Shown here one piece after another: positions 1 to 3,360 of a DNA stretch of 44,970 bases. The notes beneath the pieces are model-generated. The model worked only from the letters and a program-made list of their open reading frames with translations. It did no database searches and was not told the origin of the DNA. This stretch comes from Escherichia phage vB_EcoP_C, in sequence record NC_047807.1. The stretch is one strand, 5' to 3'. Position 1 is the first letter of the stretch; each line of letters begins with the position of its first letter. The position numbers and the translations under genes were made by a program.

Positions 1-75
1 TTAAAAAGTCATAATAGTCACCTTATATAGTGTAAGTAAATATCACATAGCCCACACAGGCAGGCTATAGGCTAG

Positions 76-303
76 TTACTTGATGTAATGCCACGTTTCT
101 ATAAATGCATCTTTGTTAATGGCGCATTCCGTGCCGTTAGGTGCAATGTATTCGACTAAACCACCTCTTACACAGAGGTAGTTACCGCCTTCCTTTCTTA
201 GTTTGCGTTTAGCTTTATCGAATAAAAACTCACGGTAAAGGTGATAGGAGCACCAGCTTAAGCCAATAAGAGCAAATGCCATAATGATGCTATCTAAATC
301 CAT
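76..303 (-). CDS. Hypothetical early protein, N-terminal hydrophobic segment (75 aa)
   Basis: ORF track; ATG preceded by TAGGAG Shine-Dalgarno; lies downstream of phage-type promoter at 367-389. Confidence 0.6.
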   Translation of the reverse strand: MDLDSIIMAFALIGLSWCSYHLYREFLFDKAKRKLRKEGGNYLCVRGGLVEYIAPNGTECAINKDAFIETWHYIK

Positions 304-366
304 AGTCTTAACTCCTAGTAAGTGAAAGTTTAATCAGGCGCTACCGTAGCAACGCCTTGTTAAGCC

Positions 367-389
367 TTCTCTTATAGTGTCAGCTAAAT
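367..389 (-). promoter_or_regulatory. SP6-type phage RNAP promoter, variant (minus strand ATTTAGCTGACACTATAAGAGAA)
   Basis: Matches the 11-copy promoter family but has A instead of G at the expected +1 position. Confidence 0.45.
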
Positions 390-497
390 AGTTTGTATGT
401 AGTACCTAGCACTTCCTCACGAATCTGCGCAAATCGTAAGGAACATTTCAGGGTTACACCGTCTGAGAAGATGAAGTTATATTGCCTTTCCATCTTA

Positions 498-827
498 TTA
501 TTCCTCTTCTCCGCCTTCATACCAAACTACATCGCTGTCATTTGGTACATCATTATAAAGAGCTTCATAGATGCGAGCTTGTAGAATCTTGGTTACATCC
601 TTCGTATCAGGAATCAAACCAGCATCTTCAAAATCAACATCAATGCCATCAGCAGCCATCACAGTAAAGATTTCGCTGTAATAAACTGGCACCATGCTAT
701 CTACAACCTCATGCAGTGCATCAGAGTAATCATCATCTTCACGAATCTCATCGTACTTGATGCGCTCGTTGAATGCTTCAACAGTTGCAGCCAGAAGGTT
801 GTAGTAAGCGTTAGCGTTGCGTTCCAT
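498..827 (-). CDS. ocr: Ocr-like anti-restriction DNA-mimic protein (T7 gp0.3 homologue), 109 aa
   Basis: Highly acidic; recalled similarity to T7 Ocr (IRxDDD...VPxYYSxIFxVMAxxGIDxxFEDxGLxPDTKDVxxILQARIYE); GAGGA SD. Confidence 0.8.
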   Translation of the reverse strand: MERNANAYYNLLAATVEAFNERIKYDEIREDDDYSDALHEVVDSMVPVYYSEIFTVMAADGIDVDFEDAGLIPDTKDVTKILQARIYEALYNDVPNDSDVVWYEGGEEE

Positions 828-921
828 GATTTAATCCTCATTAGTTAGTTAGGTTACATTATAGGGCACTCAAAAGAATACCCTAGGTTTAACCTATCCA
901 GACTAAGAAGCGACTACCCAT

Positions 922-934
922 ATTGTTAAAGAGC
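922..934. repeat. Conserved early-region 13-mer ATTGTTAAAGAGC, copy 1 of 4
   Basis: Exact 13-mer recurs at 922, 1184, 1496 and 2255, each in an early intergenic spacer with a flanking imperfect long hairpin. Confidence 0.6.
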
Positions 935-1002
935 GTGGCTTGTGCCTTGATAGGCTGGCTAGTGCCAGCAACTATCTTATAAGATACTATTCACAAGTTT
1001 AT

Positions 1003-1140
1003 CTATTTAGCATTAATTGCAACCACTTTACTATAAAGTTTATCGTGTTTGCTCTTATCTGTGTTAGCTTGCCAAGCGGCATAAGCAACAGCAAGTTTCT
1101 CTTGCAATGCATCATAGCGTTTACGTTGTGCGTTAGTCAT
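1003..1140 (-). CDS. Small hypothetical protein, 45 aa (below ORF-track size cut-off)
   Basis: Hand translation MTNAQRKRYDALQEKLAVAYAAWQANTDKSKHDKLYSKVVAINAK; AAAGGTGA SD 6 nt upstream of ATG. Confidence 0.45.
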   Translation of the reverse strand: MTNAQRKRYDALQEKLAVAYAAWQANTDKSKHDKLYSKVVAINAK

Positions 1141-1183
1141 GATAGTTCACCTTTGTTAGTAAGCCTATCAAGACACAAACCAG

Positions 1184-1196
1184 ATTGTTAAAGAGC
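1184..1196. repeat. Conserved early-region 13-mer ATTGTTAAAGAGC, copy 2
   Basis: Exact repeat; flanked by CCTATCAAGGCAC / GTGTCTTGATAGG complementary arms (13 bp with one G-U) on the transcribed strand. Confidence 0.6.
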
Positions 1197-1239
1197 TAGG
1201 TTAGTGCCTTGATAGGCCAGCTATTAAGCTGGCTTATTG

Positions 1240-1452
1240 CTACAATTCTCCATCATTCAGTGCTTTAAGCCATCTGTAACCAGTGGCCTTACTCACATTA
1301 AGATACATGTTACAGAAGTCCACGAACTCATCATGTGTTGGCTGTTTGTCTGCCTTATAGTGTGCAAGCAGTACAGCCATCTTCTTGATAATCCGCTTCT
1401 CTTGTTTCTCACGTTCCATGCGTAATTCGTGAGCGATGTCGCAGTAGTTCAT
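1240..1452 (-). CDS. Hypothetical small early protein with HTH-like C-terminus (70 aa)
   Basis: ORF track; TAAGGTGA SD; C-terminal segment VSKATGYRWLKAL resembles a helix-turn-helix. Confidence 0.6.
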   Translation of the reverse strand: MNYCDIAHELRMEREKQEKRIIKKMAVLLAHYKADKQPTHDEFVDFCNMYLNVSKATGYRWLKALNDGEL

Positions 1453-1495
1453 AGTTCACCTTAGTAAGTAGTTAGCCTACCAAGGCACTAGCCAG

Positions 1496-1508
1496 ATTGT
1501 TAAAGAGC
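1496..1508. repeat. Conserved early-region 13-mer ATTGTTAAAGAGC, copy 3
   Basis: Exact repeat in intergenic spacer. Confidence 0.6.
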
Positions 1509-1541
1509 GGGATGTTTAAAGACGTCGCCGTCTTGATGCTT

Positions 1542-1570
1542 AATGTAGCCTTGTATGCCGTGGTTGTCAA
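1542..1570 (-). promoter_or_regulatory. Candidate host sigma70 promoter (TTGACA-17 nt-TACATT on minus strand)
   Basis: Perfect -35 hexamer, 17-nt spacer, -10 TACATT; intergenic; same arrangement as candidate at 2420-2448. Confidence 0.35.
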
Positions 1571-1578
1571 TAGTTAAT

Positions 1579-1803
1579 TTAGAGATTTGTCGTGATTACT
1601 TCATCGTAATCATAATCTTCACTACCTAGATACTCAGTAATGACTTGGTTGTCATACTCAGATACTAAGGTAACTCGGTGATATTCAGTGTCGTAATCTA
1701 TCAAATAGTGATACACATCAACACCTACGCCAGCTTGCATCATATCATCGTGGAAGCGAATAGCTTCGCTAGCTGATTCAAAGAATACCTCATGTTGATA
1801 CAT
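1579..1803 (-). CDS. Hypothetical acidic early protein (74 aa)
   Basis: ORF track; ATG overlaps upstream stop (TAATG); rich in D/E/Y. Confidence 0.6.
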   Translation of the reverse strand: MYQHEVFFESASEAIRFHDDMMQAGVGVDVYHYLIDYDTEYHRVTLVSEYDNQVITEYLGSEDYDYDEVITTNL

Positions 1804-1982
1804 TATTTACCCTCCCTCAACTCATCTATCATGTTACGGTATTGATTAACCGTATCGGTCCAACCTTCGTTAAGAAAGCGGTGATACAAGGCTAACTCAT
1901 CATCTGTAAGTAATTCGTTGTTACGAATCATGTAACATAACAGGGTGAAGAGAACGGACAGTTCACGGTTATTTAATGTCAT
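1803..1982 (-). CDS. Hypothetical early protein (about 59 aa)
   Basis: ORF track frame; track start is GTG, first ATG at 1982 has AGAGGG SD. Confidence 0.55.
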   Translation of the reverse strand: MTLNNRELSVLFTLLCYMIRNNELLTDDELALYHRFLNEGWTDTVNQYRNMIDELREGK

Positions 1983-2196
1983 GATTAGCACCCTCTTTAA
2001 GAGTTTTGATAATGCGGTTATATGCTGTACCAGTTATAACTAATTTATTACCCATCTTAAGATCAATATAGTGCAGATACTTAGGCGAATAATCATAGTT
2101 ATCTGGTGTGCGCATCTTACATAAGTCATAACCTTTATCGAGGACGTGCTGAATCTCATCAACTGGCATGTTGTACGCTTTTACTTGTACTTTCAT
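1969..2196 (-). CDS. Hypothetical early protein (about 75 aa)
   Basis: ORF track frame; start moved to ATG at 2196 preceded by GAGGGA SD. Confidence 0.55.
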   Translation of the reverse strand: MKVQVKAYNMPVDEIQHVLDKGYDLCKMRTPDNYDYSPKYLHYIDLKMGNKLVITGTAYNRIIKTLKEGANHDIK

Positions 2197-2254
2197 AGTT
2201 AATCCCTCATTCAATAAGTAATTAACCACGGCATACACAGGTTACACTAAGCAA

Positions 2255-2267
2255 ATTGTTAAAGAGC
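2255..2267. repeat. Conserved early-region 13-mer ATTGTTAAAGAGC, copy 4
   Basis: Exact repeat immediately upstream of the first early gene. Confidence 0.6.
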
Positions 2268-2419
2268 ATTGCGCTAACCTTGGTTTATCGTGGTAGGTTA
2301 TGCTTGCGCCATCTTCCACTATCTAACATTGTTTAACGGCTTCAGTAGCTAGGCCGGATAGTTAAGGACGCTCTCTATCATTCACCCTGAGTGTTTAATG
2401 TCGCTCCCGACTGATTGCT

Positions 2420-2448
2420 AATGTATACCTGTTAACTGCCTATGTCAA
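2420..2448 (-). promoter_or_regulatory. Candidate host sigma70 early promoter (TTGACA-17 nt-TACATT)
   Basis: Consensus -35, 17-nt spacer, -10 TACATT on minus strand in the non-coding region upstream of the early genes. Confidence 0.35.
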
Positions 2449-2675
2449 CACTAAATCGCACTAAGATAGATTATTTATGTGATACCTGTCACAACTGCTA
2501 AGGTAAACCTAGGTTGTCTAACGTGTGAGACTAAGGAAAGCAATAGATACAGAGCTAGGATAGGCTAGGACGGCTAGGTTTCTGGTGTTCCTCCTACTGC
2601 ATCTTATCACTATTACCTACTCTCAGCGGTCTACCGACCGCGACCTAATTGCATCTTATAGCTTTAGCTATGCAA

Positions 2676-3010
2676 TCACTAAGGTCTGGCACTAAGACTA
2701 ACTAAGGTACACTACTAAGTTGATACTAAGCTAAGCACTAAGGCTTTAACTAAGGCAGCCCACTAAGGCTAACCTAAGCCATCCATCAAGGAACAACCTA
2801 AGGTACACGTGAGCGAGTGAACGGAGCGCAAGCGGAGTGAACGAAACGAACAGATAGCCCACACCCTCACACCTTGTCAAACACTCAGGAATTGCCCTAA
2901 AACGGCCTGTGTAAGCCCTAAGCGGTTGCACTAAGGCAATCACCTTGTCCAACACTAAGGCGTGCCCTAGCGCTTCCTAGGCGTTCTACTTGTGCAGCCA
3001 CTAAGAGCAG
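2676..3010. repeat. Array of 12 or more dispersed copies of heptamer CACTAAG(G) in non-coding genome-end region
   Basis: Visible repeats of CACTAAG/ACTAAGG at irregular spacing; by analogy with T7-like short repeats near genome ends. Confidence 0.6.
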
Positions 3011-3204
3011 ACCTCGGCAAACCTCAGCCAACCCGTCGAGCTTCCTGCTGCCGCAGGTTGAAGACGGCCCAGCCTAGCCCAATTCCCAAGCCAACCGCAG
3101 CGCGGCCCCATATGGGGGAAATCCGGCGAGGGCGAGGGCGAGAGAGCTGACACACGCCTACATCAAAATTTTTTTGACTTTGGTTACTTTGTGACCACCT
3201 TTGG

Positions 3205-3360
3205 TTACACTAAGTCGAAACCTTGTGGCTTCTTCATGTAGCACTGGATAGTTCCACCAAGTACCTTCTGGCTGGCTAAGGCCGACTCCTCGGACTCATG
3301 AATCTTCCTGAGTACATTCTTCTGGAATGGACCTACACCATACGTATGAATCCAAATCAT
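3205..3360 (-). CDS. Small hypothetical protein (about 51 aa)
   Basis: Internal ATG of ORF-track frame with strong AAGGAGGT SD; lies in otherwise non-coding region. Confidence 0.3.
   Translation of the reverse strand: MIWIHTYGVGPFQKNVLRKIHESEESALASQKVLGGTIQCYMKKPQGFDLV

Follow-up and report, generated by a model that had tools for sequence, protein, structure and literature searches.

The early region of Escherichia phage vB_EcoP_C (NC_047807.1; the window, that is, the whole stretch of 44,970 nucleotides that was analyzed) contains four exact copies of a 13-mer, which reads GCTCTTTAACAAT on the mRNA (minus) strand and ATTGTTAAAGAGC on the plus strand. Our results indicated that this 13-mer is very probably a boxA element of the type found in the ribosomal RNA (rrn) operons of the host, and that three of its four copies head long-range helices of 18–30 bp, the trailer strands of which lie 190–800 nt downstream, after one to three open reading frames (ORFs) and before the next boxA. 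Taken as a whole, the explanation that rrn-type boxA elements head helix-bracketed units of the early operon is a likely one. The identity, strand and position of boxA, the helices with their covariation, the geometry shared with rrnB and the alignment of the last unit with T7 were all computed in this analysis. The window is a K1E-like Vectrevirus (Autographiviridae); over its first 3.2 kb it shares 100% identity with Escherichia phage vB_EcoP_R and ~96% with phage K1E, and its early genes are on the minus strand, reading downwards from ~3150.

Identity and setting of the 13-mer

Exact copies of the 13-mer lie at 922–934, 1184–1196, 1496–1508 and 2255–2267, and no further copy was found in the window when up to two mismatches were allowed, while 100 dinucleotide-preserving shuffles contained none. 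All four are positioned in non-coding spacers of the minus-strand early operon, namely in the leader ahead of gene 1 (2255–2267; ATG at 2196), between genes 2 and 2.5 (1496–1508), between genes 2.5 and 2.8 (1184–1196), and between gene 2.8 and ocr (922–934); in the direction of transcription they are called boxA1 to boxA4. The original prediction, made from the sequence of this region, had claimed a fourfold exact recurrence with every copy in an early intergenic spacer, and both points were borne out, by the shuffles and by the ORF map, respectively.

BoxA is the NusB/NusE binding site of the ribosomal anti-termination complex, and its rrn form works in rrn operons without a phage N protein. 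The rrnB leader of Escherichia coli K-12 holds GCTCTTTAACAAT base for base (record L002, 417–429), and all four window copies, each reading GCTCTTTAACA(AT), match the gamma-proteobacterial boxA consensus GYUCUUUAANA (GYTCTTTAANA in DNA letters; PMC5725501). The affinity of NusB:NusE is 5–8 nM for the rrn boxA versus ~80–90 nM for the lambda nut boxA (PMC2800207), and by sequence match the phage boxA is the tight-binding rrn form. A permissive-threshold Rfam scan of window positions 1–3300 returned no family for the 13-mer; the sole match was a chance miRNA-like match to a hairpin at 309–380. The source of this near-match is a stable 5' hairpin (−23.5 kcal/mol, z −3.8) that directly follows the SP6-type phage promoter TAGCTGACACTATAAGAGA (386–368, minus) and precedes the next gene (region 304–386).

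The strand and position of the copies also fit a signal in transcripts of the host polymerase, which is the target of Nus factors (PMC5725501). All four lie downstream of predicted host promoters (P1 and P2, below) and, since all precede the first SP6-type phage promoter (368–386), they sit in host-polymerase RNA. Strand and conservation were surveyed in 20 early-region loci, comprising the window, T7 and 18 other phage records, with SP6 counted once; besides K1E, K1-5 and SP6, these include 15 records from Przondovirus, Phimunavirus, Tuodvirus, Acadevirus, Kayfunavirus, Gajwadongvirus, one Zobellviridae phage and others. Every exact boxA copy in this set (37 of 37) and every one-mismatch variant (6 of 6) is on the sense strand of its own operon, and the sequence 5' of boxA is otherwise unrelated from phage to phage. 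In every computed fold boxA is unpaired, and in the helix model described below it is the linker between one trailer and the next leader. The gap from boxA to the start codon is 43 nt for boxA2 and boxA3, 58 nt for boxA1 and 94 nt for boxA4, which precedes ocr.

Two departures from the exact motif were seen in close relatives. Where the window has its fourth boxA, the K1E record (L001, AM084415; reverse-complement ~2236) has GCTCTTTTAACAAT, with one additional T; either the variant is genuine, and boxA would then be disturbed, or the homopolymer was misread in sequencing. In SP6 (L003), a third boxA of variant sequence, GATCTTTAACAATCTGG at 1536–1546, sits between a second P2-like sequence and the ocr leader; it departs from the consensus at C2 (to A).

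Helices bracketing the early ORFs

The early operon of the window has the order P1-boxA1-L1[genes 1, 1.5, 2]T1/P2-boxA2-L2[2.5]T2-boxA3-L3[2.8]T3-boxA4-hairpin-ocr, in which L and T are the 5' (leader) and 3' (trailer) strands of the helices. Sigma-70 promoters were called by a consensus scan, in which P1 and P2 each matched at 10 of 12 positions. The features, in the order of transcription, are as follows.

2420–2448, minus: P1, predicted sigma-70-type early promoter TTGACA-17-TACATT (consensus scan, 10/12), upstream of boxA1
2255–2267, minus: boxA1, GCTCTTTAACAAT, exact copy in the early-operon 5' leader, with the same sequence as boxA of the rrnB leader
2224–2253, minus: L1, 5' strand of the type-2 helix, TGCTTAGTGTAACCTGTGTATGCCGTGGTT; duplex with T1 of 30 bp, −42.2 kcal/mol
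1579–2196, minus: genes 1 (1969–2196), 1.5 (1803–1982) and 2 (1579–1803), ORFs in PHROG families of unknown function, inside L1:T1
1542–1570, minus: P2, predicted internal sigma-70-type promoter TTGACA-17-TACATT (consensus scan, 10/12), upstream of boxA2
1537–1565, minus: T1, 3' strand of the type-2 helix, AACCACGGCATACAAGGCTACATTAAGCA, overlapping P2
1496–1508, minus: boxA2, exact copy
1473–1490, minus: L2, 5' strand of a type-1 helix, TAGTGCCTTGGTAGGCTA; L2:T2 of 18 bp, −30.5 kcal/mol, with covariation in the family
1240–1452, minus: gene 2.5, ORF of 70 aa, inside L2:T2
1202–1219, minus: T2, 3' strand of a type-1 helix, TGGCCTATCAAGGCACTA; its core is the left arm of the original prediction
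1184–1196, minus: boxA3, exact copy
1162–1182, minus: L3, 5' strand of a type-1 helix, TGGTTTGTGTCTTGATAGGCT; L3:T3 of 21 bp, −35.5 kcal/mol; its core is the right arm of the original prediction
1003–1140, minus: gene 2.8, ORF of 45 aa in the window, inside L3:T3
936–956, minus: T3, 3' strand of a type-1 helix, AGCCTATCAAGGCACAAGCCA, identified by duplex and covariation
922–934, minus: boxA4, exact copy
832–916, minus: local irregular hairpin lying between boxA4 and the ocr start codon, over the ocr Shine-Dalgarno sequence (−37 kcal/mol, z −5.9)
498–827, minus: ocr-like anti-restriction gene, next after the final boxA unit (phrog_2568, E 3e-51)

In the phages compared, the leader strand begins 0–7 nt (mostly 0–5) past the boxA core. 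The arm of the type-1 helix is ~20 nt long, as in TGGTTTGTGTCTTGATAGGCT, and its complement, here AGCCTATCAAGGCACAAGCCA, lies 190–350 nt downstream and ends 1–5 nt ahead of the next boxA, with one small ORF between leader and trailer. The best ungapped helix scores between leader and downstream sequence were 17–27 for type 1, and 17–30 overall, versus a maximum of 15 in controls with the downstream sequence reversed. Among 25 distinct variants of the type-1 helix, 99.3% of cells are paired and 10 of the 18 inner pairs have changed on both sides; none of 500 shuffles was as good, and slid registers were only 29–41% paired. This count is conservative, being confined to 18 ungapped inner pairs because MAFFT gapped the outer helix. 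The strands themselves differ widely, as illustrated by the leader and trailer of phD2B (GTGTCGTGATAGG and CCTATCACGACAC), Kc166A (GCGACTTGATAGG and CCTATCAAGTCGC) and PP99 (AATCTACCTGATAGG and CCTATCAGGTAGATT).

The type-2 helix follows the first boxA, with the leader TGCTTAGTGTAACCTGTGTATGCCGTGGTT (2253–2224) pairing with AACCACGGCATACAAGGCTACATTAAGCA (1565–1537) around genes 1, 1.5 and 2, and its trailer coincides with promoter P2. Over 15 variants from 15 phages, 96.8% of cells of this 30-bp helix are paired, 15 of the 30 pairs show compensatory change, and again none of 500 shuffles was as good; the duplex energies range from −39 to −54 kcal/mol, against −23 to −32 kcal/mol in controls. 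In the sense strand, non-Watson-Crick cells are mostly G.U rather than A.C (29:2 in type 1 and 21:10 in type 2), an excess that speaks for helices in the RNA of the early transcript and not for a repeat at the DNA level. We consider it highly probable that the leader–trailer helices form in RNA.

Several lines of evidence place the conserved pairing across the ORF. In SP6 copy 2 and phD2B copy 2 the upstream arm is present and its local partner absent, while in Gaspode and an Edwardsiella phage both arms flank the ORF but only one exact boxA is present, with a one-mismatch copy following the trailer in the Edwardsiella phage; these lone arms and single-boxA units imply that the conserved pairing spans the ORF and not the motif. 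Within the window, L2:T2 (−30.5 kcal/mol, 18 bp) and L3:T3 (−35.5 kcal/mol, 21 bp) both beat the non-cognate duplex T2:L3 (−25.9 kcal/mol), and the outer helix parts of the two type-1 units differ in a matched fashion (TAG/CTA versus TTG/CAA). The hairpin around the copy at 1184 (copy 2 of the original prediction) is this non-cognate T2:L3; it joins one unit's trailer to the leader of the unit that follows, and the two strands are complementary only because both units repeat one design in tandem. Thus, the arms that the original prediction placed around the 13-mer belong to real helices, but their covarying partners lie across the ORFs.

Some smaller features of the operon deserve description. 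Gene 2.8 encodes 45 aa in the window versus 54 aa in K1E, K30 and the PHROG profile, and its stop codon is 48 nt before the trailer, not ~22 nt, so that the window gene seems to have been shortened by an early stop. Between the helix and the Shine-Dalgarno sequence, TAACTAACTAA (window 836–856, minus; also in L005 near 1290) provides stops in three frames before the next cistron, which would halt ribosomes reading through from upstream; its counterpart in K1-5 is CTAACTAACTAACTAAGG. Short repeats of the ACTAAGG/CTAAGG type are numerous at window ~2650–3160, a region that separates the early promoters from the probable genome end, for which a T7-like TTCCCCCATATGGGG motif (minus strand, near 3105–3125) is taken; the window appears to be a circularly permuted assembly that crosses the terminal repeat.

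Related systems, proposed mechanism and alternative readings

The closest parallel to this arrangement is found in rrnB. There, the leader strand ATCAGACAATCTGTGTG starts 2 nt past the 13-mer and its exact complement CACACAGATTGTCTGAT follows 16S, in the order and spacing seen in the phage, and a second boxA, GCTCTTTAAAAATCTGGAT, lies ahead of 23S, just as the window repeats boxA before the next unit. By analogy, the phage early operon can be read as a copy of the rrn layout, boxA-leader[16S]trailer...boxA-leader[23S]trailer. The rrn leader–trailer helices are covarying, cut by RNase III and 25–40 bp long (PMC10250234), whereas those of the phage are 18–30 bp; they enclose rRNA over a span of 1.5–2.9 kb, whereas the phage helices enclose ORFs of 36–95 aa (type 1) or three small genes (type 2) over 190–800 nt. 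In addition, unlike rrn operons, the window has no boxB hairpin right before boxA and no boxC sequence UGUGUGGG. As the enclosed units are protein-coding, the phage helices are an analogue, rather than a member, of the rrn leader–trailer helices.

In T7, the first 8 kb contain a single boxA (813–823), positioned between promoter A3 and gene 0.3. The same GCTCTTTAACAATCTGG is thus on the early transcript downstream of the host promoters A1–A3, as in the window, but T7 has one copy versus four, and its boxA is followed by a local hairpin only, whereas three of the four window copies head long-range helices. The leader from boxA4 to ocr aligns with the T7 leader from boxA to gene 0.3 (T7 807–930), with a common upper stem AGGGUAU...GUGCCCU, and the hairpin at 832–916 (z −5.9) is local and irregular; no significant local hairpin surrounds three of the four 13-mers. 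RNase III site R0.3 lies in this T7 leader and is one of five early sites (R0.3, R0.5, R1, R1.1 and R1.3) reportedly described by Dunn and Studier in 1983, with R0.3 mapped; R0.3 is not listed in the T7 RefSeq feature table. The T7 RNase III sites are structured intergenic elements in a host-transcribed early operon, as are those of the window, but they are local hairpins, whereas most window helices are long-range and leave the 13-mer outside. As to function, the T7 copy is described, in a text that cites Savalia et al. (2010), as a functional 'boxA anti-termination element', mutation of which makes Gp2, the inhibitor of the host polymerase, dispensable (PMC3709561).

Other systems share single elements of the design. 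Lambda nut offers an analogy in that a phage boxA on nascent RNA recruits host Nus factors, as would be the case in the window; however, the nut boxA binds NusB:NusE ~tenfold more weakly and needs boxB and N, whereas the window boxA is of the rrn form. A short hairpin of the boxB type is absent after the window boxA, where a helix strand with a distant partner follows. The 5'-UTR of E. coli suhB resembles boxA2 and boxA3 in having boxA within ~50 nt of the start codon of a coding gene, but that boxA is a single autoregulatory site without a flanking leader–trailer helix. The PeSL cassettes of T4-type phages, said by Arbiol, Comeau and Krisch (2010) to be repeated intergenic modules flanking variable small early ORFs and proposed to serve modular shuffling, reportedly consist of an early promoter plus a stem-loop, as against boxA plus gene-bracketing helix halves in the window.

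We propose that host polymerase starting from P1 or P2 would be modified at boxA by Nus factors (NusB/NusE along with NusA, NusG and SuhB) into a fast, termination-resistant form, as at rrn operons and, reportedly, at the one boxA of T7. The leader strand, tethered through boxA, may be kept close to the RNA exit channel and so be available for pairing with its cognate trailer once the bracketed ORF or ORFs have been transcribed; a similar proposal has been made for rRNA, in which NusB-bound boxA keeps the leader at the exit channel until the trailer emerges (PMC10250234). RNase III would then cut the 18–30 bp helices and release discrete small mRNAs with paired ends. The repetition of boxA at the head of every unit could be explained because cutting would sever the link to the earlier boxA and because transcripts from P2 would lack boxA1. 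RNase III processing is plausible since the helices are similar in size to the rrn helices that this enzyme cuts and since the ocr-leader hairpin aligns with that of T7, and we regard cleavage of the helices as moderately probable.

Several considerations weigh against this explanation. Binding of Nus factors, anti-termination and cutting by RNase III are inferences for this phage as for any SP6-like phage, P1 and P2 are predicted from consensus matches only, and the functional evidence on the T7 boxA is second-hand, through the citing text. Translated mRNAs have a less obvious need for anti-termination than rRNA. In addition, the minimum free energy (MFE) fold of the whole region (1512–915) favours a nested arrangement of T2:L3 and L2:T3, and in this phage, with its two cassettes, thermodynamics does not by itself pick out the cognate pairing; the choice of pairing was based on covariation, cognate duplex energies and one-cassette phages, and the MFE fold was set aside. 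The significance from the shuffles is somewhat overstated because the covariation sets are made up of mutually related sequences, although the slid-register control is unaffected.

The alternatives were weighed against the same evidence. The original prediction took the 13-mer and its local arms as RNase III hairpins of the T7 type, with the 13-mer inside the recognition site, and T7 early mRNAs are indeed established to be processed by RNase III. Its quoted arms, CCTATCAAGGCAC and GTGTCTTGATAGG, are both present around the copy at 1184, where local folding per site gave a significant hairpin (−37.1 kcal/mol, z −4.8) that the whole-region MFE fold includes. This part of the claim held for that copy alone: local folds at 1496 (z −1.2) and 2255 (z −0.4) are no better than shuffles, and at 922 the 13-mer lies outside the stable structure, so the model in which each copy sits in its own stem-loop was rejected. 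The lone arms of SP6 and phD2B, the single-boxA units of Gaspode and the Edwardsiella phage, and the compensatory changes, which track pairs across the ORF, argue in the same direction, as does T7, which has several RNase III sites but one copy of a motif that is the rrnB boxA. The 13-mer is not an RNase III determinant, and this reading is very unlikely. The 13-mer might instead be a −10-like promoter element for host RNA polymerase, given the resemblance of its A/T-rich hexamer (TAACAAT) to a −10 box; but the consensus scan, which found P1 and P2 elsewhere, called a promoter at none of the four copies, and the sequence upstream at the −35 distance is not conserved. The sigma-70 reading, which is hardly credible, was rejected on the result of that scan.

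Two further readings accept much of the observed structure. In the suhB type of regulation, a boxA within ~50 nt of a start codon lowers translation and permits Rho termination (PMC5725501), and the window copies could by this route act as Nus-dependent repressors that tune or delay the early genes. The distances of boxA2 and boxA3 (43 nt) and boxA1 (58 nt) are within the described range (PMC5725501), yet boxA4 is 94 nt from the ocr start codon, repression of every unit is hard to square with an operon needed within minutes, and the T7 copy is reported, in the text cited above, as anti-terminating and not repressing; we consider such repression highly unlikely. Alternatively, the repeats could act at the DNA level only, as conserved linkers or inverted repeats through which small early gene cassettes recombine, or as the inverted ends of a miniature mobile element whose duplicated target is boxA, with no function in RNA. 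The same 5' and 3' flanks, at fixed spacing, do surround ~19 unrelated ORF families, cassette number changes between 0, 1 and 2 in close relatives at module boundaries, the gene 2.8 cassette with its flanks is ~94% identical in K30, and a 63-nt module is present in 143 records from many hosts. However, the predominance of sense-strand G.U among arm mismatches (29:2 and 21:10) is unexpected for DNA repeats; the arms diverge between phages yet remain complementary, unlike ends recognised by a transposase; the outer end beside boxA is the most variable part; some units have a single boxA; and the motif is exactly the host boxA. Inverted repeats with target duplication were rejected as the sole explanation because G.U cells are in excess, the outer ends vary and some units have one boxA, and the DNA-only reading is unlikely; recombination at the modules may well occur, as a consequence of the repeats and not in place of an RNA function. 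None of these alternatives accounts together for the exact host boxA, the covariation across ORFs and the G.U bias.

Possible exchange and spread of the units

The type-1 helix brackets ~19 unrelated ORF families of 36–95 aa, and in most of these cassettes the start codon is 22–27 nt past the leader and the stop codon 21–25 nt before the trailer. Close relatives have 0, 1 or 2 type-1 units between P2 and the ocr leader, varying exactly at module boundaries, and therefore 2, 3 or 4 boxA copies. One ORF family was seen with different arms and identical arms with different ORFs, and the gene 2.8 unit is ~94% identical, together with both flanks, in K30, which belongs to another subfamily. A 63-nt module of boxA, leader and ribosome-binding site occurs in 143 phage records from at least 10 host genera, 133 of which match at least 80% of it; in the feature tables retrieved for related records the module is unannotated or overlapped by a 'hypothetical protein'. 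These observations suggest that small early genes may also be exchanged through the modules.

Taking these points together, we tentatively put forward a broader possibility, namely a portable, rrn-mimicking cassette in which boxA and a leader–trailer helix, with fixed helix-to-codon gaps, surround one swappable early ORF. In such a cassette, Nus factors might make host polymerase traverse the first-entering DNA faster and keep the leader in place for its cognate trailer, RNase III might excise a mini-mRNA with paired ends, and the next boxA might reload the complex, while the flanks would let subfamilies and families swap genes for host takeover or anti-defence.

Both boxA and the RNase III sites of T7 are already known. 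Multiple boxA copies heading ORF-bracketing helices in SP6/K1E-like phages were not found in the searchable literature, and the subscription genome papers on SP6 and K1-5 may mention them. An unannotated, highly conserved phage motif is re-identified here as a host anti-termination signal, and a lytic phage appears to apply the rRNA-operon design of boxA plus a unit-bracketing helix to mRNAs. Whether the Nus complex promotes long-range helices as an RNA chaperone is debated for rRNA (PMC10250234), and a bracketed, translatable unit of ~250 nt would be an easier test bed for this role than the ribosome. The conserved flanks also mark a variable slot beside ocr, with ~19 small ORF families, and so offer a handle for host-takeover and anti-defence genes. 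In phage engineering, the modules are likely to be required for proper early expression.

Comparable arrangements were seen in more distant records. Erwinia phage Pecta (L141; Zobellviridae) has a boxA-leader-ORF-trailer unit with a 23-bp helix at 334–650 (minus), which suggests that the module has moved between families. In L180 (~2507, minus) there is a seemingly empty cassette, with a gap of 36 nt between type-1 leader and trailer, no ORF and a local hairpin straight after boxA. In the T5-like pre-early region of an IMG/VR contig (L122), 1 kb contains four boxA-type motifs (~400–1400, minus), each just past a promoter-like sequence; the region encodes a PHROG 'DNA transfer protein' and 'DNA binding protein', which we take to be the equivalents of T5 A1/A2. 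One of its boxA motifs has a 20-bp leader, the complement of which, 671 nt downstream, overlaps a CCTATAAT box and ends 11 nt ahead of the next boxA; it thus seems that a phage family unrelated to this one has the design as well. Similarly, in prophage-like IMG/VR contigs (L020, L025, L032, L041, L063, L105, L111, L131, L132 and others) boxA is followed at once by ATCTGGATATCC..., and the complement ...GGGGATATCCAGAT lies 440–680 nt downstream, with scores of 15–21. In L041 boxA is ~190 nt downstream of a gene for a cI/LexA-like repressor, called by eye from a KGDSM motif, and a hairpin, which on the opposite strand reads as a terminator, often precedes boxA in these prophage-like contigs.

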